Part shown: in pieces, positions 559-18,906 of the stretch
How positions within the stretch are numbered: position 1 is the stretch's first letter
Layout of the letters: every line of letters starts with the position of its first letter
Source: Myxococcales bacterium
Lineage (GTDB): Bacteria > Myxococcota_A > Polyangia > Palsa-1104
NCBI GenBank assembly: GCA_043741435.1
Contig: JAYUBF010000316.1
Location: 1 to 28,932, forward strand
Direction: 5' to 3'
DNA: 28,932 nt
The notes under the pieces: generated by a model
The model's input: only the letters and a program-made list of their open reading frames with translations
Databases searched by the model: none
What the model was told of the DNA's origin: nothing
Translations under genes and position numbers: made by a program

Positions 559-3683
<3,125 letters not shown>

Positions 3684-4489: not shown

Positions 4490-5095
4490 GTGGCAAAGGC
4501 GAAACGAGGTCTCGAAGGTTTGCCAGTAGGCGCGCGTTGGCGTCTCTTGCCTCTGTCGCGAAGCGATGCTCTGGTAGCGCGCATGGCTCCCTCCGCCGAT
4601 CTCGCCGAACGATTCCTCGAGCAGCTCTTCGACGCCACCGGGCCTGCACCCGCCGTCGACTGGGATCGCTTCCGTATGATGCAGCTCATCCCGGGCACCG
4701 CCGGCGCACCCGATGTAAATGCGCGCGATCAGCTGGTCGCGCGGGGTTTCGTCGAGATCGCAAAGGGTTCGTTCAACGCAGAATCCGAGCGTCGCTCGTT
4801 ATCGTCGCTGCGCGCACTTTTCGAGCAGATCGTCGGTGCGCAGTACAAGGTTGTCGCGTTCGACAATCCGATGGTCGGCGCCCTGCGACAAGGACCCACG
4901 CCGGGCGCGCCGCCGAACCTTGCGCGCCTCCTGTCCGCCGTATCGGACATCGTGACGAACGCCGAGCCCATCACCATCCGTTCCGATGGTGACGTGCTCG
5001 GTGAACGGCTCATGACGTTGCTGTTCGTGAACGGAAAGTACGTGGGCTTCCTACCGGGCCGACGCGAGGTTGCGCCAGGCGCCGCGAAGGCCTAG
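4490..5095 (+). CDS. Hypothetical protein (201 aa from GTG 4490; alternative ATG 4583); no recognisable domain
   Basis: ORF divergent from brnT; stop codon overlaps the stop of the convergent flotillin gene (CTAG). Confidence 0.35.
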   Translation: MAKAKRGLEGLPVGARWRLLPLSRSDALVARMAPSADLAERFLEQLFDATGPAPAVDWDRFRMMQLIPGTAGAPDVNARDQLVARGFVEIAKGSFNAESERRSLSSLRALFEQIVGAQYKVVAFDNPMVGALRQGPTPGAPPNLARLLSAVSDIVTNAEPITIRSDGDVLGERLMTLLFVNGKYVGFLPGRREVAPGAAKA

Positions 5096-7152
5096 ACCTT
5101 CGCGACGGGCGGCGCCGCGATGCGTGCCTGCAGACCTTGACGAATGGCCTCGGCGGCAGCCGAGCGAGGACCGATCGCCGCTTCGCCGATCAGTGATTCA
5201 CCGACCTTGTCGGACAGCAGCATGGCGAGGAGCGCCTCCATCACGTTGCCGTTGCCACCCTTGCCGTCGGCGCCGCTGCCGCCGATCACGATCTTCGGCA
5301 CCACGTCGACGCCTGCGGCCTGGATGGCCTCGGCGAAGCGACTCATCACGCTCTGCGTGAGCTGGAACCGCGGCCCACCGTAGGCGCGGACCTGCTCCTC
5401 GACGGCGAGCGCCTGCGCGACACCGACGCGGGCCACGCGCTCGGCTTCGGCACCGGCGAGCAGCTCGATCTTCGAGGCCTCGCCTTCACCATGCAGACGC
5501 GTGCGGTCACGCTCGGCTTGCGCCATGACTTGAATCTGTGCCGCCTGTTGCTGCGCGCGCGCAAAGTCGGCCTTGCCCTGGTTGGCCTGCACGGTGATGG
5601 ACAGCTCCGACTCGGTGATGTGCGTCTGCTGTTTCGCGCGCGACTCGGCTTCGCGTAGCTCGCGCTCCTTCACGGCCGCCTTCTCCTGCCGGCTGTAGGT
5701 CTCGACTTGCTCCTCGGCGATCTGACGAGAGCGCAGCTGCGTGAGGATCTGCTCGATCTGTCCACCTTGGCCCGACGGTGTGCCGATGAGGACTTCCTGG
5801 AGCTCGAGGCTGTACGCGGCGAACTTGGTGCGCATCTCGGAGCCCGACTGATCTTGGATCGCCGAGCGATCTTGGATGAGCTGGATCAGCGTGCGCGTCT
5901 GGCCGATGTTCTTGAAGTACGCGGCCACCATCGGGTCGAGCGTCTGCTCGACGAGGCGCTTGATGTCACCGAAGCGCTGCACCACGAGCGGCGCCTTGCG
6001 ATAGTCGATGTGCACGACGACGCTGAGCGGCAGTGACGGCTCGAAGGCGTCCTTCGTGATGAGCGACACCTCGGCGAGGTTCTCGTCGAACTTGTGCGCG
6101 CCGGTCTCGGTGCGGTTCCACTTCAGGATGAAGTTGGTGGTGGGCACGATGATGACCTTGCCCGCGTATGTGTTGAACGCGTACTTGCCGGGCAAGAGTG
6201 GCTCGTTCCACACGCCGCGCAGGCCCTTGCCGACCATCTCTCCGTGGCGATACCCCTCGCCCGACAGATCGGTGCCCTTCGTCCCGGTGTAGGAGACCAC
6301 GACGCCCACGTTGCCGACGTCGATCACGGTCTTCGGCACCGCCTCGACGGTGGCGAACAAGCGATTGATGTAATACGTGCCCTCGGCAAGCACCTGCAGC
6401 TGACGGCCACGATTACCGCCGGCGCGGAGGAAGCGCTCCGGATCTTGAAAGCTCGCGTGGAACGTCTCGGGTACGCTCGGATCGTCACCAATGGTGGGCG
6501 CGATGATCTCACCATCGGGCAGCGACGGGCCGTCGTGTACCGTCACGACACCGATCGCATCGTCGGCGCCTTGGATGACGATGGGCACAAAGCCCCAACG
6601 CTCGTTGAGGAGCTGTGCCATCGCGGCGAACACCTTCTCCTCCTCTTTCTGGAGCTGGTGATAGAACACGCCGCGCTCGGTGATGACGGCGAACTGCGCG
6701 AGGTTGATGGCGTAGGTGCCTTCCCGCAACAGCTTGCGCTGAGGACCGCGTTGACCGCCCTTGCGCAAGAACGCTTCGACGTCTTGGAAGTCGTCGGCGT
6801 CGACGTTGCTGGCGAGTGTTTGGTTGTTGGGCAACTGTTGTCCGTCACGCGCGAACAAGTAGCCGAGGTGACCCTGACCGATCGTCACGAGCGGCTGTAT
6901 ATGCACCGAGTAGACGAACATCGGGAGGAAGTGCACGCCACCGCGCAGCACATGCGGCTGAAAGCCGGCCTCGCCGCGGAGCGCGATGATGCCGCTCTTG
7001 ATGGACCCGCGCGGCGAGAACCGCTTCTCGACGATGCCGACCTTGGAGTTGGGGATGAAGCGGATCGATCCGAACAGGTAGAGCGCGACGAGCCCGCCCA
7101 ACACGTACACCAACGTCATCCACGTACTGTCTGCCATGACCTGCGAGAACAT
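5092..7152 (-). CDS. Flotillin-family SPFH/band-7 protein (YqiK-like), N-terminal TM anchor, long coiled-coil
   Basis: 686 aa; N-terminal hydrophobic segment, SPFH domain, EA-rich coiled coil (AEEQVETYSRQEKAAVKERELREAESRAKQQ...), typical flotillin architecture. Confidence 0.8.
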   Translation of the reverse strand: MFSQVMADSTWMTLVYVLGGLVALYLFGSIRFIPNSKVGIVEKRFSPRGSIKSGIIALRGEAGFQPHVLRGGVHFLPMFVYSVHIQPLVTIGQGHLGYLFARDGQQLPNNQTLASNVDADDFQDVEAFLRKGGQRGPQRKLLREGTYAINLAQFAVITERGVFYHQLQKEEEKVFAAMAQLLNERWGFVPIVIQGADDAIGVVTVHDGPSLPDGEIIAPTIGDDPSVPETFHASFQDPERFLRAGGNRGRQLQVLAEGTYYINRLFATVEAVPKTVIDVGNVGVVVSYTGTKGTDLSGEGYRHGEMVGKGLRGVWNEPLLPGKYAFNTYAGKVIIVPTTNFILKWNRTETGAHKFDENLAEVSLITKDAFEPSLPLSVVVHIDYRKAPLVVQRFGDIKRLVEQTLDPMVAAYFKNIGQTRTLIQLIQDRSAIQDQSGSEMRTKFAAYSLELQEVLIGTPSGQGGQIEQILTQLRSRQIAEEQVETYSRQEKAAVKERELREAESRAKQQTHITESELSITVQANQGKADFARAQQQAAQIQVMAQAERDRTRLHGEGEASKIELLAGAEAERVARVGVAQALAVEEQVRAYGGPRFQLTQSVMSRFAEAIQAAGVDVVPKIVIGGSGADGKGGNGNVMEALLAMLLSDKVGESLIGEAAIGPRSAAAEAIRQGLQARIAAPPVAKV

Positions 7153-7173
7153 GACGGCACTCCATTTGAGAGA

Positions 7174-7198
7174 CGGACACGGCTATGTGCCGTGTCCG
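7174..7198 (-). promoter_or_regulatory. 9-bp perfect stem hairpin (CGGACACGG-N7-CCGTGTCCG) 23-47 nt upstream of flotillin ATG and ~55 nt downstream of the AAA+ gene stop; terminator/attenuator or 5'UTR structure
   Basis: Inverted repeat read from sequence; followed on the minus strand by UCUCUC then GGAG RBS. Confidence 0.3.
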
Positions 7199-9809: not shown

Positions 9810-9903
9810 GGGTCACGCAGTGTAGCCCGTCTGCACGCGGTTCGAGACTGCGCTATCCTTCAGCCCGACCGCGATCGGCACACCCACCTTGGAGGACGGC
9901 TAC

Positions 9904-11037
9904 ATGGGCATTTTCGACTTCGTGAAAAAAGGCGCGCAAGAGCTCTTCATCGCGCGACCCGACGAAGCCAAGGGGATGATCGTCTTCAAGCACCCCGACC
10001 AAACGGTGCCGAACAAGGCACAAATCACCGTCGGTCAGGACGAGTGCGCGTTGTTCTACAAGGACGGCCAGTTCGTCGGTCGCGTCGACGCGGGTGTGCA
10101 TAAGCTCGAGACGGGCAACATCCCGTTCCTCAACCGCCTCGTCGACACCTTCACGGGCGGCAACCTCTATCGCGCGGAGCTGTGGTTCGTCTCGCTGCGT
10201 GAAGCTGGTGGCTGGCGCTTCGGGGGTCGCATCGGCGACGTGGAAGATCCGAAGTCGGGTCTCGCCATCCAGCTCATGGTTCATGGCGAGTTCTCGGTCC
10301 AGACGGAAGACCCGATGAAGCTCATCGCGTTCTTCGGTCAACGTTCATGGTCCACCACGGAAGAGTTCGACGGCTGGTTCAAGAGCCTCGTGCTGAAGGT
10401 CATCCGTGATCGCATCGCCGAGCTGTGCGTGAAGCAGAACGTACCTCTCCTCAATGTGACGTCGGGAGCGCTCACCGAAGAGGTGGAGGAAGTGGTGCTG
10501 AAGGGCATCGCGCCGCAGCTCTCGCCCTACGGCATGAAGGCCGTGCGCCTCGGCAACTTCGTCGTGTCGATGAAGGAAGAGGACGAGATCCAGCTGAAGG
10601 CGCTCTATAAGGACGCCGCGCAGATCCGTATGGCGCAAGGCGCCAACATGGGCGCGTACCAGCAGTTCGCCGCGGGCAAGGCGATGATGGGCGCGGCCGA
10701 CGGGATGGCCAAAGGGGGCGACGGCGGAGGCGGTGGCAATCCGATGCTGGGCGGTGCCGGCCTCGGTGTGGGCCTCGGGATGGCGCAGATGTTCAACCAA
10801 TCGAACCAGGCCGCGCAGCAGCCAGCGGTTGCGCCGGCCGCGGCTGCACCCCAGTCACAGCTGCGTGCGCTGCTGCAGACGGCGCAAGCCAAGGTGGCCG
10901 GTGTGGCGGACGCCGATACCAAGACGCGGCTCGAGGGCATGATCCGCGACCTCAAGGGCGCCGTCGCCAAGGGCGACAAGGCGAAGCAGGGCGAGCTCGA
11001 GACCGAGCTTCAAGATCTGCTGTTCGTCTTGGAGTAG
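9904..11037 (+). CDS. SPFH/Band_7_1-family protein (YdjI-like), Gly-rich linker and C-terminal coiled-coil
   Basis: Starts MGIFDFVKKG with GGAGGA RBS 7 nt upstream; pattern typical of the Band_7_1 subfamily; divergent from the zinc-ribbon gene. Confidence 0.65.
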   Translation: MGIFDFVKKGAQELFIARPDEAKGMIVFKHPDQTVPNKAQITVGQDECALFYKDGQFVGRVDAGVHKLETGNIPFLNRLVDTFTGGNLYRAELWFVSLREAGGWRFGGRIGDVEDPKSGLAIQLMVHGEFSVQTEDPMKLIAFFGQRSWSTTEEFDGWFKSLVLKVIRDRIAELCVKQNVPLLNVTSGALTEEVEEVVLKGIAPQLSPYGMKAVRLGNFVVSMKEEDEIQLKALYKDAAQIRMAQGANMGAYQQFAAGKAMMGAADGMAKGGDGGGGGNPMLGGAGLGVGLGMAQMFNQSNQAAQQPAVAPAAAAPQSQLRALLQTAQAKVAGVADADTKTRLEGMIRDLKGAVAKGDKAKQGELETELQDLLFVLE

Positions 11038-11557: not shown

Positions 11558-11642
11558 GGGCGCAGCCTACCCCAGGGACTCGTATTTTCGCTCCCGTGAA
11601 AACCTCCGGGAACCGGAGACCGCGACCGTTGTCAGTGTACCC

Positions 11643-12038
11643 ATGCTCTACAACGCTGCGGTTCGTACCGCGGTGCTGGCGTTCGCGTTCGCGATCGTTG
11701 GCGCCGCATCGGAGAAGCTCGCCCACGGCAGCCCGCCTTGCACCAAAGGTCGGGTCGAGGTCGACAACGACAAGCGCACGCTGATCGTGTCGCTCGACAA
11801 CCATTGTGACGCGCGCATCCCGTGCAAGGTCACGTGGCGGCTGCGCTGCAATCGCGGACCGGCACAGGAAAAGGAAGAGGCCGTGCAGCTCGAGGCGCAC
11901 GGCGATCAACGCATCGAGGCGACTGCCTCCATGTGCTCCAGCGACGGGGATTGGGAGATCTCACCCCCGCGTTGGCGTTGTGATGAGCCGGTCGAGATCA
12001 GCGAGAGGCCGAGCGGCAAGCGCCCGCGAAGGCGCTAG
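11643..12038 (+). CDS. Small secreted Cys-rich protein (signal peptide MLYNAAVRTAVLAFAFAIVGAAS, 6 Cys); hypothetical
   Basis: Internal ATG of track ORF 11439..12038 gives a signal peptide; divergent from the DUF885 fragment. Confidence 0.4.
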   Translation: MLYNAAVRTAVLAFAFAIVGAASEKLAHGSPPCTKGRVEVDNDKRTLIVSLDNHCDARIPCKVTWRLRCNRGPAQEKEEAVQLEAHGDQRIEATASMCSSDGDWEISPPRWRCDEPVEISERPSGKRPRRR

Positions 12039-12053: not shown

Positions 12054-12746
12054 TCACGAGAGGAGCTCCTGCCGAACGTTGACGGCTGGCAAGGGCAAGA
12101 GGTCGTGCGCGAAGGTCCAGGGCCACGTATGACGGCCCTCCGGCGGCAAGCCGCCGACGCGCGTGATTACCACGCGCAAGAAAGAGCGCGTGGCATCGTT
12201 GAGGTAGCCACCGCCGCGCGGACCCTCCGGCAGCTCGCACATCGCCGCGTAGCGACGCCAGATGGCGGCGAAGATCTCGTCGCGGCGCACCTTGGCGAGG
12301 ATGGACGCGGCTGCGACAGCGACGTGCACGGACTCTCCCTTGTCGTGTGCCTCCAAGATCGGATAGCGCGGGATGAGCGGTGAGAACAGCCGCGCGCCAT
12401 CGCACACGATGCGCTTGCAGGGCGGCGCGTGATCGATCATCGACGCCGCGGTGCGCTGCTCGAGCCGGTTGAGGCCTTGCACGGCACACGCGCGATCGAC
12501 CTCGTGCACGTCGAGCACCCGGATGGTCACGTAGTCGGCGACCGCCAAGATGCGCGGGACCAGCGACGAGCGAACCTCGTGCGCGTCCGGTCCCGCGAAG
12601 GCCTTCGAGTCGGCCACACCCGCGCGGGTGAGCGCAGCGGAGGCGCGTGGGTGCAATGCGACCGCAGCCATCACCATCGGCCCGACGATGGGTCCGCGAC
12701 CCGCTTCATCGATGCCGAGGACGCGATCTCCGTGGATCAGTTTCAT
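12054..12746 (-). CDS. rnhB: Ribonuclease HII
   Basis: MKLIHGDRVLGIDEAGRGPIVGPMVMAAVAL matches the RNase HII active-site region; ATG overlaps the stop of the upstream dynamin gene (ATGA). Confidence 0.9.
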   Translation of the reverse strand: MKLIHGDRVLGIDEAGRGPIVGPMVMAAVALHPRASAALTRAGVADSKAFAGPDAHEVRSSLVPRILAVADYVTIRVLDVHEVDRACAVQGLNRLEQRTAASMIDHAPPCKRIVCDGARLFSPLIPRYPILEAHDKGESVHVAVAAASILAKVRRDEIFAAIWRRYAAMCELPEGPRGGGYLNDATRSFLRVVITRVGGLPPEGRHTWPWTFAHDLLPLPAVNVRQELLS

Positions 12747-15697
12747 GGGGTCGGTGGTTCTTGTAACCCGGCAGCGATCACCTGGCGCAAGGATTCGATT
12801 GGCCCGACGAGCCGACACTCGAGGTCGAAGCGACCGAGCGCGACGTCCTCGCGGTGTTGCGCGATGGCGGAGAGGAGATCGGAGAACAAGGCCTGGCAGT
12901 AGGCGCGCAACGGTTGGCGCAGCTCTTCTTCGAGCGTGTCGTCGTCGAGAGGCGATGCGCGCTCGAGTGCCCTGCGCACCTCGGTCTCGACGAGGTCGAG
13001 CTTCGGCAGGTCGCGCGAGAAGAAGGTGGCAACGGCGCCGCCACGCAGATAGCCACGCACGAACGCGCGATAGCGACCGAACACGCGATCGTCGAGGAGC
13101 TCCAGGCGATCGAGCACGGCGGCCCGTTCGCCCGGGCCCACCAGCTGCGCGAGCACGGACACCGAACGTCGCAGCTCGTCGAGCAAGCGCAGCCGCGAGG
13201 TGGCCAAGGCCGTGGTGAGACGCTCTTCGAGGAGCGCGAGCAAGAAGTCGCGGTCGGCCGGGGTGGCCTCGTTGCCGCCGAACAGCGAGCGACGGGGCCG
13301 TACGAAGTCGAGCACCTCGCGCGTGCAGACCTTCAGCGCCTCATCGGAGGCCTCGAGCAAGCGACGTCGCTCAGCCGGCAAGAACTCGTGTGTCATGGCG
13401 TAGCTGTCCGCGCGCACCGCCGCTGCGGCGCGATCGTCCGCATCGGTGGAGAGCGTGCTCAGTTTCTGGTCCACGATCTGGCGAGCTTGCTCAAGGAGAG
13501 AGGCCGCGCGCGTCATCGCCACCCGACGCTGGATGACGCGCGCTCGATTGAAGAACCGCTCCTCGAGCGTCGCATCGAGCGTGGGATAGTTGGATGCGGC
13601 GAGCGCCGTAGCATCTCCACTACGTCGAGCTGCGAGTGCGGCCCGTGCGGAGACGGGCACCACGGTCTCGAGGCGGTCACCGACGCTGCGCTGCACGTGG
13701 GCGATGATCTGCGCGCGCTCGCCCTCGTCGGCGCGATCGATCTTGTTGAGCACCCCGAGGATCTTGCGACCGTGCGAAGCGATCTTGCCGAGGGCTTCTC
13801 CTTCGGAGGCCTTGGCTGCTTGGTCGACGGAGAACAACCAGATCACCGCATCGGCTTCCTCGATGAAGCGGCGCGCCGTGGCTTCGTGCTCCGGATGGAT
13901 GGAGTTGAGGCCCGGCGTATCCACCACGTTGATCCGTTGCAACACCTCGAGCGGAAACAAGAGCTCGACCAGGCGAATGCGCTTCGCTTGCTCGGCGGTG
14001 AGGTTCTTCAGGAACGCCGGCACGTCGGCCCACGCGATCTCTCGCGTGCTCTCGTCGTGGTGGATGATGCGGCCGCCGCGCTCGGGTCCGTACTTGAGGA
14101 GGTTCACCGTCGCGGTGGTGGGCGTGACGCCCATCGGTGCTACTTCTTCGCCGAGGAACGCATTCACGAAGGTGGACTTGCCCGCGTTGAACTCGCCCAT
14201 CACCGTGATGACGAGCGGGCGATCGAGCGACTCGCGCAATCGGCCGAGAGCAGGTTGCAGCTCGGCCAGCTCGGGTGCCGATGTGGACAAGCGATGGGCC
14301 GCTGCGAGGAGACCCGCGACATCGCCCGGGGCCGGATCTTCACGACGAAACAACGCTGCGTAGCGGGTGCGCGGGCGCGGATCCGACGGCGAGAGCTGGG
14401 CAGCACGGCGCAGTGCCACCAGCGCCCCATCGCGCGTGCCACGACGCAAGGCCACCTCGGCCTCGGCCAGCTTCACCTCGACGGAGCGCAGCGCCAGCGA
14501 CGGATCGGCGAGCAGCAGCTGCGCCTCGGCGTCGAAAGCGGCGACGTCGCCTTCGCGCAGCAGCATGCGCAACGCGAGGGCCGCGTGAGCCTCGGGGTGG
14601 GTCGCGTCGCGCAGGAGGAGCGCCTCCGCGTACACCGCCGCGCGCTCGCGAAGATCCGCGCCGAGGGCCACACTCAACGCCTCCGCGAGCAGCGGCCTCG
14701 GATCGAGCAACGCGATGGCTTGGCCATCTTCCGGCGCCGCGACCTGGCCGCCACCAGCGAGCGCGCGATCGAAGGCATCGAGCGCGACCTCCGGCGATTG
14801 CGCCAAGGCCGCGATGCGCCCGAGCTCGACGAGGAGGCCCAGATGGCTCGGTGCGTGCCCGAGTGCTTGCAAGATTTCACCGCGCGCCTCGTCGAGCCGA
14901 CCCTCGAGGCGCGCGAGCTTCGCGAGGCCCAGGCGCGACAGCACCTCGGCATCTCGCAGATCACGCCCCGTCGCATCGAGCGGTTGCTTCGCCTCGGGCA
15001 ATGCCGCGATTCCCGCGAGCGCCGCACGGAACGACGTCTGCGCTTCTTCGCCGCGCCCGAGCGCGAGCGCGACCTCACCACGCGCTGACCACGCGAGTGG
15101 CGGTACCGGTTCTCTGCGGGTGGCACGCTCGAGGCAGATGCGTGCGGTGTCGAGATCCCCTTTGTGGAGTAGCGCTCGACCGAGCAACGTCTGCGCGGTG
15201 ATCTCGTCCGGCGCCGAGGCCACGGCCTTGCGCAGCTCCCGCACGGCGCGATCGTAGCGACCGAGCGCGAGGTTCGCGGCACCGAGGCCACGATACGCCT
15301 CCGCGCGGATTCCCACGTCGCCAGTGCCACCGTCGAGCGCACGGCGAAAATGGGAGATGGCCTTCTCGTGGTCGCCGCGGCTCATCGCCAGCTGACCCAG
15401 CGCGAGAAAGGGCTCCACGAAGCCCTCGCGCAGTGACGCTTGCTCGTACAGCTTCGTCGCGCCGTCCGGATCCCCCATCTTCTCGCGCACGACGCCGAGC
15501 AAATACTGGGCGCGAGAATGATCGGCGCGGATCACCAGCGCCGCCTCGAGCTCGCGCTCCGCGCCCTGAAGATTTCCGGCGTCGAGGTACGCCTGGCCCA
15601 GCTCGGTGTGCGCTCGCAGGTCGTCGGGGACGATGAGCTCCCCGAGCTGATCGGCGAGCTTGTCGAAGAAACCGGACGACTTGTCGGTGGGGCTCAC
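12743..15697 (-). CDS. TPR-repeat (N-terminal ~470 aa) fused to bacterial dynamin-like GTPase (C-terminal ~500 aa); no hydrophobic paddle
   Basis: Multiple TPR units (AQYLLGVVREKMGDPDGATKLYEQA..., AQTLLGRALLHKGDLDTAR...); G1 GEFNAGKST, switch I TPTTATVN, G3 DTPG, G4 NKID; GTG start 3 nt after the TAA of the preceding gene. Confidence 0.8.
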   Translation of the reverse strand: MSPTDKSSGFFDKLADQLGELIVPDDLRAHTELGQAYLDAGNLQGAERELEAALVIRADHSRAQYLLGVVREKMGDPDGATKLYEQASLREGFVEPFLALGQLAMSRGDHEKAISHFRRALDGGTGDVGIRAEAYRGLGAANLALGRYDRAVRELRKAVASAPDEITAQTLLGRALLHKGDLDTARICLERATRREPVPPLAWSARGEVALALGRGEEAQTSFRAALAGIAALPEAKQPLDATGRDLRDAEVLSRLGLAKLARLEGRLDEARGEILQALGHAPSHLGLLVELGRIAALAQSPEVALDAFDRALAGGGQVAAPEDGQAIALLDPRPLLAEALSVALGADLRERAAVYAEALLLRDATHPEAHAALALRMLLREGDVAAFDAEAQLLLADPSLALRSVEVKLAEAEVALRRGTRDGALVALRRAAQLSPSDPRPRTRYAALFRREDPAPGDVAGLLAAAHRLSTSAPELAELQPALGRLRESLDRPLVITVMGEFNAGKSTFVNAFLGEEVAPMGVTPTTATVNLLKYGPERGGRIIHHDESTREIAWADVPAFLKNLTAEQAKRIRLVELLFPLEVLQRINVVDTPGLNSIHPEHEATARRFIEEADAVIWLFSVDQAAKASEGEALGKIASHGRKILGVLNKIDRADEGERAQIIAHVQRSVGDRLETVVPVSARAALAARRSGDATALAASNYPTLDATLEERFFNRARVIQRRVAMTRAASLLEQARQIVDQKLSTLSTDADDRAAAAVRADSYAMTHEFLPAERRRLLEASDEALKVCTREVLDFVRPRRSLFGGNEATPADRDFLLALLEERLTTALATSRLRLLDELRRSVSVLAQLVGPGERAAVLDRLELLDDRVFGRYRAFVRGYLRGGAVATFFSRDLPKLDLVETEVRRALERASPLDDDTLEEELRQPLRAYCQALFSDLLSAIAQHREDVALGRFDLECRLVGPIESLRQVIAAGLQEPPTP

Positions 15698-15700
15698 GCG

Positions 15701-17515
15701 TTACGCTGGCGGGGCCCACAGGCGATCGCGCAGCGACGAGATGTGCTGCTCGATGGCGTGGAGGCGCTCGAGCTGCGCGACGATCTGCTCGTCCCGCTCC
15801 TGCACGTTGACGCCCTGGTTGCGGCGCTCGGCCAGCGCACGATCGAGCACCTCGCCAATTCCTTTGTGCAGCGCCTCGCCGGCGGCGGTCACGAAGTCGG
15901 ACAGGCGCAGCTGGAAGTCTTCGACGATGTTCTCGAACTTGGGGCCGATGACCAGCGCTGCACGATCGACCACTTCTTCGATGCCGCGCTTTGCCTGCGC
16001 CTTGATCTCGCCCGACACGCGGTCGCGCAACAACAGCGCGATGATCGGCGCAGCGACGGTGAGCAGGCCACCCACCAGCGTGTTTACGAACAGGAACACG
16101 CCGGTGCCGAGCGCGCCCAGCGCGAACACGCCCACGTCGTACTTCAGCGTGTCGACCTCGAGCTCGACCTTGGTGTCGGCGGGGCCGAGCTCGCGCGCGA
16201 GCGTGGCCATCGTCGCGTCGACGTCTTCATTGGTGATCTGGATGATCTCCTCGGCGAGGCGCTCGAGCTGCGCTGCGACCTTGTCTCCCAGCGTCTCGGC
16301 CCAGGTCTTCCACGTGTCCTCGAGGAACGGCTGCAGATACTTCTGCACGTCACCACCCGAGACACGATCGATCTCGTTCGGCAGGCGTCCCTTCAGCTCG
16401 CGCACGAATTCCTCGAGGTCGAGGCGAAGGCCGGCCTTGATCGCGTCGGCCTCGGCGCGGATGCGCAGGTGATGGGCGCGCAGGTGAGCACGCGCACCGT
16501 CGAGCTGGTGGCGTACCTTGCCGATGCGTGACTCCAGCTCGTCGAGCTCGAGCTCGAGCGAGCGGCGCTTGATGCCGAGGTTCTGCCGCAGATAGCCGAG
16601 CGTGCGCAGCCCATCGGCGATGCCGTTGTCGAGAAGCACCTGCCCGCGCGAGGTGGACAGGTAGCCGTTCAGGTGATCGAGCAGGGGCTTCATGCCCGAG
16701 GTCTCGCGCACGGCGGGATCGGCCGACAGCTGACGCTTGGCCGACAGCGGGAAGATCATCGGGTCGGGCACGACCTTGTTGAGGTGCTCGCGCGCAAAGC
16801 GCAGCGTCTCGTCGCGCTCGTCGGGCGCGAGCAGGTCGATCTTGCCGATGACGAAGAAGATCTTGTCGCGTGAGCGACGGAGGATGCGTTGCTCGAGGAA
16901 CGCGCGCTCGGACTGCTTCAGCACCTGCGCACCATCGAGCAGGAACAACACCGCATCGGCACGCGGGATATAGCCGTAGGTGATCTCGGCACGCTGCTCG
17001 TTGATGTCGTTGACGCCGGGCGTGTCCACCAGCGTCACCCGATCGCGCAGGATATCGGCGGGCCACGCGACTTCAACGAACTTCACCTGCATGGCCGCGC
17101 TTTGCGCCTGCTGGCCTTCGATGGTCACCCAGTCGTACAGCTTGTGCGGGTCGATCTGCTGCGTGCGACCGTCGGTGAAGTGGGCCGTCGCGGCTGGGTG
17201 CTCTCCCCAGATCAGGTGATTGATGGTGGCGGTCGTCGGCGTGATGCCGGCGGGCAAGACCGCGTGGCCGAGCAGCGCGTTCACGAAGGTGGACTTGCCG
17301 TGGTTGAACTCACCGACGACCACGAGGTTGAAGCGATCGTCGCGCAGCTTGGGGATGCGTTGATCGACCAGCTCCGAGCGGAGCGTCTCCATGCCCACTT
17401 CATTGGCGAGGTCGGCCGTGCGCTGCAGATCGCTCAGCAGCTGCGTCTTGAGCTCGGTGAGGCCCTGCAGCGTGGAACCGCCGTTGTCAGAGCCGTAGTT
17501 TGCGGACTCACTCAT
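15701..17515 (-). CDS. Bacterial dynamin-like protein (BDLP/DynA/LeoA-like large GTPase) with hydrophobic membrane paddle
   Basis: G1 GEFNHGKST, TPTTATIN, DTPGVND, GKID; hydrophobic segment VGVFALGALGTGVFLFVNTLVGGLLTVAAPIIALLL in the stalk region; start overlaps the M48-like gene stop (ATGA). Confidence 0.85.
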   Translation of the reverse strand: MSESANYGSDNGGSTLQGLTELKTQLLSDLQRTADLANEVGMETLRSELVDQRIPKLRDDRFNLVVVGEFNHGKSTFVNALLGHAVLPAGITPTTATINHLIWGEHPAATAHFTDGRTQQIDPHKLYDWVTIEGQQAQSAAMQVKFVEVAWPADILRDRVTLVDTPGVNDINEQRAEITYGYIPRADAVLFLLDGAQVLKQSERAFLEQRILRRSRDKIFFVIGKIDLLAPDERDETLRFAREHLNKVVPDPMIFPLSAKRQLSADPAVRETSGMKPLLDHLNGYLSTSRGQVLLDNGIADGLRTLGYLRQNLGIKRRSLELELDELESRIGKVRHQLDGARAHLRAHHLRIRAEADAIKAGLRLDLEEFVRELKGRLPNEIDRVSGGDVQKYLQPFLEDTWKTWAETLGDKVAAQLERLAEEIIQITNEDVDATMATLARELGPADTKVELEVDTLKYDVGVFALGALGTGVFLFVNTLVGGLLTVAAPIIALLLRDRVSGEIKAQAKRGIEEVVDRAALVIGPKFENIVEDFQLRLSDFVTAAGEALHKGIGEVLDRALAERRNQGVNVQERDEQIVAQLERLHAIEQHISSLRDRLWAPPA

Positions 17516-18297
17516 CGCGACAGAACCTCGCCCACTTTGCCGTCTACCTCGGCCTGTGTGAGGCCGCCTTGCTCACCGGTGAGCGCCTTGTAGTACGCGC
17601 TGTCGGCAAAGACGCGCAGCGCTTCGAGGCGCTTGGCCGTGCCGTCTCCAGAGGGCATGAGCTTCATCAAGGCTCCGGCGGCGGTGTCGATGTTGCGCAC
17701 CGCGATGAGACCCGCGCGATCGGCGGTGAGCGCGGCGCGTTGCTCCCAAGCGCCGAGCGCGATGGCCGCTGGCTTCACGATCCACTGCAAGAAACGGTTG
17801 GCCGAGCGCGTGAGGTGATAGAGCGCGGTGATGAACACCACGTGATGGTTCTGGATGTGGCCGCATTCCTGGCCGAGCACGAACACGAGCTCGTCGTCGC
17901 TCAGGGCTTCGATGCGCGTGGCATCGAGCACGACATCGACGTCTTCGTCGGTGCCGAAGGTGCGCGCGACTACCTGGTCGAGGGTCGGTACGACGTAGAG
18001 AGTTGGCCGCGGGATGTGCAACGCCTTGGCCGCGCGCTCGACGAGCGCATCGAGCTTCGGCAGCCTGTCGGGGCTGACCTTGGTGGCGCCGTTCAAGAGG
18101 CCGTCGCGCGCGCCGGACTTCCACAGTCGCACGCTGGCCTCGATCGCCAGCTTCACCGGCCGCACCGAGTCGAGCGTCTTCTTGATGCGCAGGTCCCCGC
18201 CGTACGAATAGGCGGCGCCCTCACGGGCTTGGGCATCGCGCGCGCCTTTTCTGCGCTCGATGTACCGCTGGAAGTCCAGATCGATGTCGACGGCCAT
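17512..18297 (-). CDS. M48-family metallopeptidase-like protein with variant motif QECGH in place of HExxH; cytoplasmic (no TM or signal peptide)
   Basis: PRPTLYVVPT...DELVFVLGQECGHIQNHH...EQRAALTADRAG follows the M48 (HtpX/Ste24) layout; the first zinc-ligand His is Gln; ATG 18297 (track uses TTG 18336). Confidence 0.65.
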   Translation of the reverse strand: MAVDIDLDFQRYIERRKGARDAQAREGAAYSYGGDLRIKKTLDSVRPVKLAIEASVRLWKSGARDGLLNGATKVSPDRLPKLDALVERAAKALHIPRPTLYVVPTLDQVVARTFGTDEDVDVVLDATRIEALSDDELVFVLGQECGHIQNHHVVFITALYHLTRSANRFLQWIVKPAAIALGAWEQRAALTADRAGLIAVRNIDTAAGALMKLMPSGDGTAKRLEALRVFADSAYYKALTGEQGGLTQAEVDGKVGEVLSR

Positions 18298-18307
18298 GCG
18301 GCCAAGA

Positions 18308-18336
18308 ACCGTAGCCGACGAACATGGGTCGGTCAA
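18308..18336 (-). promoter_or_regulatory. Putative promoter of the M48-dynamin-dynamin-rnhB operon: -35 TTGACC, 17-nt spacer, -10 TACGGT; would give a near-leaderless transcript starting ~4 nt before ATG 18297
   Basis: Hexamers read on the minus strand; low-confidence, sequence-only. Confidence 0.2.
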
Positions 18337-18411
18337 CGCGTGCTAGATTCGGACTCCATTTCCGCCGCCGACCGCCGCCGACCGCCAGGCCCAAAGTCCC
18401 AAGGAGCGACG

Positions 18412-18906
18412 ATGAAGTTCAGCTTCGTGCACGAGTTCGACACCGACGTGAAGTCCTACTGGGAGCTGTTCCTCTCCGACGACTTCAACAAGGTCATGCT
18501 GGAGGCGCTCGGCATGAAGAACATCAAGCTCATCTCGAAAGAGGACGACGGAACCACCTTCCGGCGCTCGCAGTCGATGGAGCCGACGCTGAGCTTGCCG
18601 TCGATGTTCGCGAAGTTCGTACCAGACATGGGCTACTCGGAGCACGACACGCTCGTGTGGTCGACCAACACGATGAAGGTCGTGATCGAGCCGCGCTCGA
18701 TGAAGGACAAGTTCAAGACCACTGGCGACTACATCGTCACGCCGCTCGGTGACAACCGCTGCCGTCGCGAGTTCAAGGGCGAGGTGAGCATGTCCATCCC
18801 GTTCATCGGTGGAAAGATGGAGAGCTACACGGTGGACCAGATGAAGGCCTCGTACGAGGCCGCGACTCGCGTCACGCGCGAGTGGATCGCGAAGAAGAAG
18901 GGCTAG
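18412..18906 (+). CDS. SRPBCC/START-like hypothetical protein (DUF2505-like)
   Basis: 164 aa from ATG 18412 with AAGGAG RBS; the track ORF is over-extended upstream; starts MKFSFVHEFDTDVKSYWELF. Confidence 0.45.
   Translation: MKFSFVHEFDTDVKSYWELFLSDDFNKVMLEALGMKNIKLISKEDDGTTFRRSQSMEPTLSLPSMFAKFVPDMGYSEHDTLVWSTNTMKVVIEPRSMKDKFKTTGDYIVTPLGDNRCRREFKGEVSMSIPFIGGKMESYTVDQMKASYEAATRVTREWIAKKKG

Follow-up and report, generated by a model that had tools for sequence, protein, structure and literature searches.

We analysed a stretch of 28,932 nucleotides from a Myxococcales bacterium (assembly GCA_043741435.1, metagenomic contig JAYUBF010000316.1, positions 1 to 28,932; 'the window' below), in which four consecutive minus-strand genes encode an M48-like protein, two different dynamin-like proteins (DLPs) and an RNase HII. 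The first of the two, DLP1, has a hydrophobic tip; the second, TPR-DLP2, lacks one and carries an array of tetratricopeptide repeats (TPRs) (Table 1). The cluster looks like a core operon of Polyangia-type myxobacteria that is passed on vertically, and not like a mobile anti-phage module. Its products probably include a heterotypic pair of core dynamin-like proteins that tethers, repairs or remodels membranes, with a dedicated soluble M48-fold partner and a co-expressed RNase HII.

Gene order, junctions and inheritance of the operon

The open reading frame (ORF) listing of the window gives the order M48-like, DLP1, TPR-DLP2, RNase HII. An earlier note on this DNA, made from its letters alone, had described four minus-strand genes joined by ATGA / TAA-nnn-GTG / ATGA junctions, and direct reading of the junctions bore this out. 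At the first (cgcgATGAgtg), the M48 stop overlaps the DLP1 start in an ATGA at 17512-17515; at the second, gcgTAAcgcGTGagc (TAAcgcGTG), the GTG start of DLP2 lies 3 nt past the DLP1 stop; and at the third (cccATGAaac), the RNase HII ATG overlaps the DLP2 stop in an ATGA at 12743-12746. The four ORFs were also found as it had described them, apart from the M48 start. There the mechanical ORF reaches as far as 18336 (a TTG), whereas the database entry and the predictions of gene callers begin at an ATG, giving 261 amino acids (aa), and a start at 18297 is more likely.

Table 1. Features of the operon and its upstream flank, in window positions.
Feature	Position	Strand	Description
M48-like protein	17512..18297	(-)	First cistron; ATG start; 261 aa; soluble M48-like gluzincin with a degenerate catalytic site
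DLP1	15701..17515	(-)	604 aa; BDLP/IniA-type dynamin-like GTPase with a hydrophobic tip (paddle or hairpin)
DLP1 hydrophobic paddle/hairpin	16022..16141	(-)	aa 459-498, 40 residues: YDVGVFALGALGTGVFLFVNTLVGGLLTVAAPIIALLLRD
TPR-DLP2	12743-15697	(-)	984 aa; GTG start; TPR array and dynamin-like GTPase in one ORF
N-terminal TPR/helical-repeat array of TPR-DLP2	14288..15697	(-)	~470 aa
Dynamin-like GTPase part of TPR-DLP2	12743..14287	(-)	Cj-DLP2-like, without hydrophobic tip
RNase HII	12054..12746	(-)	Last cistron; ATG start; 230 aa; divergent
Intergenic region between operon and DUF2505 gene	18298..18408	divergent	Presumed promoter region
DUF2505 gene	18409..18906	(+)	PF10698, 75 bits; facultative neighbour

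A scan with an alignment as query, covering one genome for each GTDB species, yielded 508 loci with a DLP1 relative, unlike a scan of genome contigs with the single DLP1 sequence, which gave no match. The best 80 loci were fetched; locus counts below refer to these and the source contig (L001), searched by tblastn with the window proteins. All 80 are from Myxococcota, mostly labelled Polyangia, Kofleriaceae or Haliangiales. Close homologues came from metagenome-assembled genomes labelled Polyangia or Myxococcales, and the top 120 matches listed in three large protein searches were close Polyangia orthologues only.

Where the locus left room, an M48 gene lay directly upstream of DLP1 in 77 of 79 loci and an RNase HII gene directly downstream of DLP2 in 54 of 58; TPR array and DLP2 were fused in a single ORF in 62 of 63. 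The order M48 - DLP1 - TPR-DLP2 - RNase HII recurs in most of the 80 species-level genomes, so the genes do co-occur in relatives, a point on which the earlier note had made its proposal depend. Its claim of a tightly coupled unit held as well, with junction overlaps recurring in dozens of species: in 33/73 M48-DLP1 and 22/52 DLP2-RNase HII junctions, a start codon is placed at -4 or -1 from the stop of the preceding gene, and these exact overlaps are far above the chance expectation for a single codon position. On a separate contig with independent gene calls, M48 (263 aa), DLP1, TPR-DLP2 (949 aa) and RNase HII follow one another, and the M48-DLP1 and DLP2-RNase HII junctions again have 4-nt overlaps.

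Pairwise identities of the four proteins are strongly correlated across 53 loci (Spearman 0.83-0.94), indicating that the genes have been inherited together. The flanks, by contrast, differ between clades, and apart from DUF2505, which is inverted, the flanking genes of the other loci are absent from the window. The cluster of four has thus remained intact while its flanks turned over.

Two dissimilar dynamin-like GTPases

Both DLPs have a Dynamin_N domain well above the Pfam cut-off of 27 bits (112.3 bits in DLP1, 84.8 in TPR-DLP2). Their G1-G4 motifs read GEFNHGKS / TPTT / DTPG / GKxD in DLP1 and GEFNAGKS / TPTT / DTPG / NKxD in DLP2, and vary little or not at all among 81 and 59 orthologues, respectively, in agreement with the earlier note, which had called both GTPases intact. 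The domains, the single paddle and the QExxH motif of the M48-like protein were likewise found as it had described them.

The best PDB sequence matches of DLP1 are Nostoc BDLP (2j68, 96.6 bits), Cj-DLP1 and IniA. Its AlphaFold2 (AF2) model (predicted local distance difference test score (pLDDT) 73.5) consists of long helical bundles, and Foldseek with this model retrieved BDLP (E 8e-21) and IniA (TM-score 0.50), and also Cj-DLP1/2 and SynDLP. Nostoc punctiforme BDLP1 and Mycobacterium IniA, the best matches by sequence and fold, both possess a GTPase domain, neck, trunk and tip paddle; according to the model and the hydropathy profile, DLP1 also has a helical neck, a trunk and a tip of the lipid-binding type. 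The two differ from DLP1 in sequence (~19-20% identity) and in their genomic partners (iniBAC; cyanobacterial multi-DLP sets). Among the M48-like protein, DLP1 and TPR-DLP2, 19-residue Kyte-Doolittle windows above 1.6 occur in DLP1 alone, at aa 459-498. This stretch is largely invariant in a 15-sequence alignment and in the AF2 model lies at the tip, between long helices.

In TPR-DLP2, Pfam matches to TPR_2, TPR_1, TPR_8, TPR_12, TPR_16 and TPR_19 cover residues ~24-230 of the 984, and the best dynamin match in the PDB is Cj-DLP2 (5owv_C, 68.9 bits). No hydrophobic segment was found in this protein (maximum 19-residue Kyte-Doolittle value 1.32). TPR-DLP fusions form a sizeable family of 463 clusters (50% identity) at E <= 1e-30; of the best 150 clusters, more than 100 are 900-1000 aa long and aligned end to end.

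Most bacterial DLPs are operonic pairs that form heterotypic complexes (PMC6104087). Cj-DLP1 and Cj-DLP2 of Campylobacter jejuni (PDB 5owv/5oxf; PMC6104087) are likewise an adjacent operonic pair of two different DLPs. DLP1 is closer to Cj-DLP1 and DLP2 to Cj-DLP2, at identities that are low in structural alignments (14-18%). Hcp proteins are Sel1/TPR-like repeat proteins. The cj-dlp1/2 operon includes an HcpA-like gene (PMC6104087), whereas here the repeat array is fused to DLP2. The myxobacterial operon further differs in the soluble M48 protein encoded before DLP1, the RNase HII encoded after DLP2 and the 40-residue hydrophobic tip of DLP1.

A second counterpart is DynA of Bacillus subtilis, a chromosomal core gene with a role in membrane repair. 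Its D1 paddle half binds membrane and its D2 half does not (PMC12998192), the same asymmetry as between DLP1 and DLP2. The TPR array and one-paddle pair to which the earlier note had drawn attention are present, but with this precedent the asymmetry is not unusual. DynA differs in being a single fused polypeptide without TPR, M48 partner or RNase HII, and DLP1 scores 97 bits against the NCBIfam DynA model, far under its equivalog cut-off of 1600 bits.

In the mechanism we propose, the hydrophobic tip would anchor DLP1 to the cytoplasmic membrane, and the paddle-less DLP2 would pair with DLP1 in the manner of Cj-DLP1/2 or of D1 and D2 in DynA. The ~470-residue TPR solenoid of DLP2 could serve as a docking platform, and GTP-dependent assembly of the pair may tether, fuse or seal the membrane during repair or remodelling. 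Regulators and recruiters of bacterial dynamin pairs are largely unknown, and the operon offers two candidates, the soluble M48 protein and the TPR platform.

Two adjacent dynamin-like genes also recall Eleos, which is defined as a colocalised LeoA + LeoBC pair (bioRxiv 10.1101/2022.12.12.520048), and the earlier note had proposed either membrane repair or Eleos-like defence. If the cluster were such an anti-phage system, the M48-like protein and RNase HII would be extra sensor or effector parts. Both DLPs do match the PADLOC profiles, DLP1 that of LeoA with 81.6 bits (profile positions 103-438 of 559) and DLP2 that of LeoBC with 70.5 bits (61-358 of 601), and even a core dynamin can protect from phage, since DynA delays lysis in B. 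subtilis (PMC8844932). These weak, partial matches, however, probably reflect generic dynamin homology: the NCBIfam LeoA/HP0731 model gives 40 bits against a cut-off of 325, LeoA of enterotoxigenic Escherichia coli (4aur) is absent from the PDB sequence matches of DLP1 at E <= 1e-3, and by fold it ranks 15th, behind BDLP, IniA, Cj-DLP1/2 and SynDLP. The comparison with LeoA/LeoBC that the earlier note had asked for thus favours BDLP, IniA or Cj-DLP over LeoA.

The distribution of the cluster argues in the same direction, being class-wide (nearly all 80 related species) and not patchy, with congruent divergence. The window holds no integrase, transposase, mobile-element or recognised defence genes, its neighbours being housekeeping genes; no close homologue was found among 72,556 plasmids or 50,697 phages; and the RNase HII retains the standard motifs of a repair enzyme. 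With its core position, vertical inheritance, housekeeping context and additional M48, TPR and RNase HII parts, the cluster is unlikely to be an Eleos-like system, whereas the other half of the earlier suggestion, membrane remodelling or repair, fits. Generic matches to LeoA/LeoBC profiles could lead to a core dynamin pair being mislabelled as Eleos, a caution for defence annotation.

The M48-fold protein and the RNase HII

The M48-like protein matches Peptidase_M48 in Pfam (41 bits), and its confident AF2 model (pLDDT 90.7) has the gluzincin fold of M48 peptidases; a PDB sequence search with it gave no match, and the protein was placed by structure comparison only. The HExxH motif and downstream Glu of an active enzyme are absent from the window protein: the motif reads QECGH (17857-17871), and the third zinc ligand is changed from Glu to Ala. 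With a maximum 19-residue Kyte-Doolittle value of 0.98 and no transmembrane segment, the protein is predicted to be soluble. It does not belong to the membrane-embedded type (HtpX, Ste24 or OMA1), scoring 18-31 bits against HtpX equivalogs with cut-offs of at least 341. HtpX, BepA and Ste24 are about equally distant from it, and its likeness to M48 members is generic. E. coli BepA joins an M48 peptidase to TPRs, two parts that in the operon are on different polypeptides.

Among 76 orthologues, 52 retain the catalytic tetrad (HExxH plus third-ligand Glu). In the other 24 it is decayed in 15 different patterns (RExxR...D, RQxxK...E, QExxH...A, AExxR...N and so on); these degenerate forms are commonest in the clade closest to the window and occur sporadically outside it. 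Judged from these sequences, the ancestral protein was a canonical HExxH...E peptidase, QExxH reflects decay specific to a lineage, and the pseudo-peptidase state is derived and recurrent; the window protein would be a pseudo-peptidase in a group of orthologues that is otherwise active. The earlier note had read the motif correctly, but as a feature of the system it is not characteristic, most orthologues having kept HExxH...E. Retention of the protein despite a decayed zinc site suggests a conserved role for which catalysis is at least in part dispensable.

Made in step with DLP1, the M48 protein may be a stoichiometric partner that acts on or with the dynamin complex. In most of the class it would be a competent zinc peptidase, and could then take part in processing or quality control at the membrane; in the window's clade, where the zinc site has decayed and the protein has been retained, its role would be at least partly one of non-catalytic binding or regulation.

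A stricter version, in which the M48 protein regulates the dynamin by proteolysis and its dead forms are dominant binding or inhibitory pseudo-enzymes, is unlikely. OMA1, an M48-family peptidase, has the dynamin-like GTPase OPA1 as a substrate (PMC2806285). No pair in the cluster is better conserved than M48-DLP1, the start and stop codons of which frequently overlap, and five species keep it without DLP2 and RNase HII nearby (L013, L016, L025, L026, L069); the frequency of intact tetrads also favours this version. Cleavage of the DLPs is hypothetical, however, and no cleavage site was identified. Unlike OMA1 or HtpX, the window protein is soluble; it is also cytoplasmic and predicted to be inactive. 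Its resemblance to M48 members, judged on HtpX, BepA and Ste24, is generic, and OMA1 is likened to it by family membership only. An active site that is dispensable in one third of lineages argues against proteolysis as the essential conserved function. Two thirds of species have an intact site and one third a decayed one, which makes the operon a natural experiment, and the need for catalysis in protease-like control of a bacterial dynamin is directly testable with orthologue pairs.

The last gene encodes a protein with an RNase HII domain (PF01351, 83.7 bits against a cut-off of 25.8). D13, E14 and D116 are invariant in 54 orthologues, as are the GRG, DSK and GGGY motifs; as fourth carboxylate they have Glu138 (52 E, 2 D), in contrast to the Asp of the E. 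coli and archaeal enzymes. From these residues it looks like an active ribonucleotide-excision enzyme. It nevertheless falls under all NCBIfam RNase HII equivalog cut-offs (best scores 83.4 against 167 and 81.9 against 123.3 bits), and several orthologues are named 'hypothetical protein' by NCBI. Its best PDB matches are archaeal RNase HII and RNase H2A (~52 bits, full-length alignment), it shares 34% identity with E. coli RnhB over the N-terminal 158 residues, and it is about equally distant from the archaeal/eukaryotic enzymes and E. coli RnhB. A tblastn search with E. coli RnhB in ~1.2 Mb of fetched loci and the window, which is silent on the rest of the genomes, found the cluster's own gene alone. 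The earlier note had spoken of 'the housekeeping gene rnhB': domain and motifs agree, but with the equivalog cut-offs missed, 'housekeeping' is an assumption.

That note had also found it unusual for rnhB to be the last, overlapping cistron. The position is as described, but E. coli offers a precedent: at the end of a lipid A gene cluster, rnhB shares 4 nt with lpxB. There, too, rnhB is a tail cistron overlapping the stop of a membrane-biogenesis gene; the upstream gene is a different one, and the enzyme itself is of the canonical bacterial RnhB type. The RNase HII gene would be a translationally coupled tail cistron, and its link to the dynamin pair is most simply one of co-expression.

The pair might instead act on DNA at the membrane, at the nucleoid or replisome like E. 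coli CrfC, with RNase HII as a true partner, for example on RNA-DNA hybrids at membrane-attached replication or segregation sites. Adjacency of DLP2 and RNase HII, their junction overlaps of 4 or 1 nt, the divergence of this RNase HII from curated bacterial equivalogs and its co-divergence with DLP2 (rho 0.91) would suit such a role, as would DNA-repair genes nearby (Fpg in most loci, NUDIX and gyrB in the window) and the existence of a sliding-clamp-binding bacterial dynamin, CrfC, known here as the name of an NCBIfam family. The match to CrfC, however, covers the P-loop only (26.3 and 27.1 bits against a cut-off of 1146), and CrfC orthology was rejected. DLP1 has a membrane paddle, E. coli rnhB is coupled to lpxB without a known functional link, four species have DLP2 with no adjacent RNase HII, and we found no literature linking dynamins and RNase HII. 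We regard this DNA-directed role as very unlikely. Little credence, too, can be given to a broader idea in which the M48-fold protein controls a fusion-type dynamin (compare OMA1-OPA1), shifting repeatedly from proteolytic to purely allosteric (pseudo-enzyme) control, with the divergent RNase HII acting as a dedicated partner instead of as the cell's general enzyme and tying membrane remodelling to the handling of RNA-DNA hybrids.

Several observations weigh against a membrane module made of all four products, the reading we prefer. The unit can be broken: other genes or spacers part DLP1 from TPR-DLP2 in 30 of 60 loci (gap >100 nt), the four species just mentioned keep DLP2 without RNase HII, and seven have no DLP2 and RNase HII within ~8 kb of DLP1 (L013-16, L025, L026, L069); five of these seven retain the M48-DLP1 pair, and L014 and L015 do not. 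The junction rule takes the start nearest the stop, so that junction counts, including those for starts that overlap the stop or follow it by no more than 15 nt (61/73 for M48-DLP1, 34/52 for DLP2-RNase HII), are biased to short gaps. In Kofleriaceae the wider neighbourhood is syntenic too, so that part of the conservation is plain descent. For a housekeeping enzyme, the RNase HII has diverged to an unusual degree. Finally, contacts of the M48 protein with a DLP, and of DLP1 with DLP2, are here inferred only.

Operonic DLP pairs, one membrane binder per pair and an rnhB gene overlapping a membrane-related gene all have precedent and are ordinary. A coupled soluble M48 partner, a long TPR fusion to a paddle-less DLP and a class-wide RNase HII tail cistron are apparently undescribed. 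The earlier note had not known of a described system with this combination, and our searches of the literature for dynamin with RNase HII, dynamin with M48, BDLP with tetratricopeptide and BDLP with Myxococcus found nothing relevant.

Genomic surroundings

Outside the operon, the window carries genes for GyrB, two SPFH proteins, a sigma-54 activator, a NUDIX protein, DUF2505, an SthA-like flavoprotein, a VWA protein, MltA and an ABC ATPase. gyrB (559-3192, (+)), at the left end, suggests an ordinary chromosomal region; the gene is often near the replication origin, and no turn in cumulative GC skew was evident in the window. In the presumed promoter region (18298..18408) a promoter scan did not find a sigma-70 consensus match, and promoter/terminator and Rfam scans of the window were uninformative. 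Downstream, a small convergent gene (11640-12038, (+)) with a signal-peptide-like N-terminus and several Cys residues, for which we found neither a Pfam match nor a homologue in other loci, ends 15 nt from the RNase HII stop, a gap that leaves no space for a shared terminator hairpin.

Two SPFH/flotillin-like genes lie within 7 kb of the operon, Band_7 (696 aa; 5092-7182, (-)) and Band_7_1 (382 aa; 9889-11037, (+)). Flotillins and DynA are both tied to membrane surveillance in B. subtilis. As conserved functional partners, the two genes were rejected, being found on the source contig only and near the cluster in 0 of 80 other species.

DUF2505 is inverted in the window and so transcribed divergently from the operon. 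In 13 other species it immediately precedes the M48 gene and shares its strand, with gaps as small as 2-15 nt in L033, L010 and L003 (examples: L003 2581-3072, L083 8472-8981). An LPG_synthase_TM (PF03706) gene, which is absent from the window, precedes M48 on the same strand in 51 of 80 loci (for example, L066 5945-7057; L083 4533-5516), and this membrane-lipid-related neighbour fits a membrane role of the cluster.

On the other side, RNase HII borders a block of DNA-repair and housekeeping genes in most species: convergent genes for an anti-sigma factor (zf-HC2) and an ECF sigma factor, followed by Fpg/MutM, KsgA and TsaD, none of which is in the window. Among 47 loci, ECF sigma was present downstream of RNase HII in 38 and Fpg in 33 (for example, L083 15304-18546; also L048, L003 and L023).

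PilZ-domain proteins are c-di-GMP receptors. They are encoded near DLP1 in some loci, such as a 580-aa protein between DLP1 and TPR-DLP2 in L066 (9822-11564), the gene for which is not conserved across loci; a PilZ-like ORF in L013 (13288-13956, (-)), identified by eye only, lies 3.5 kb downstream. In 22 Kofleriaceae loci, a same-strand 357-aa gene without a Pfam match sits between DLP1 and TPR-DLP2 (for example, L066 11698-12771) and may represent a lineage-specific fifth member of the operon.

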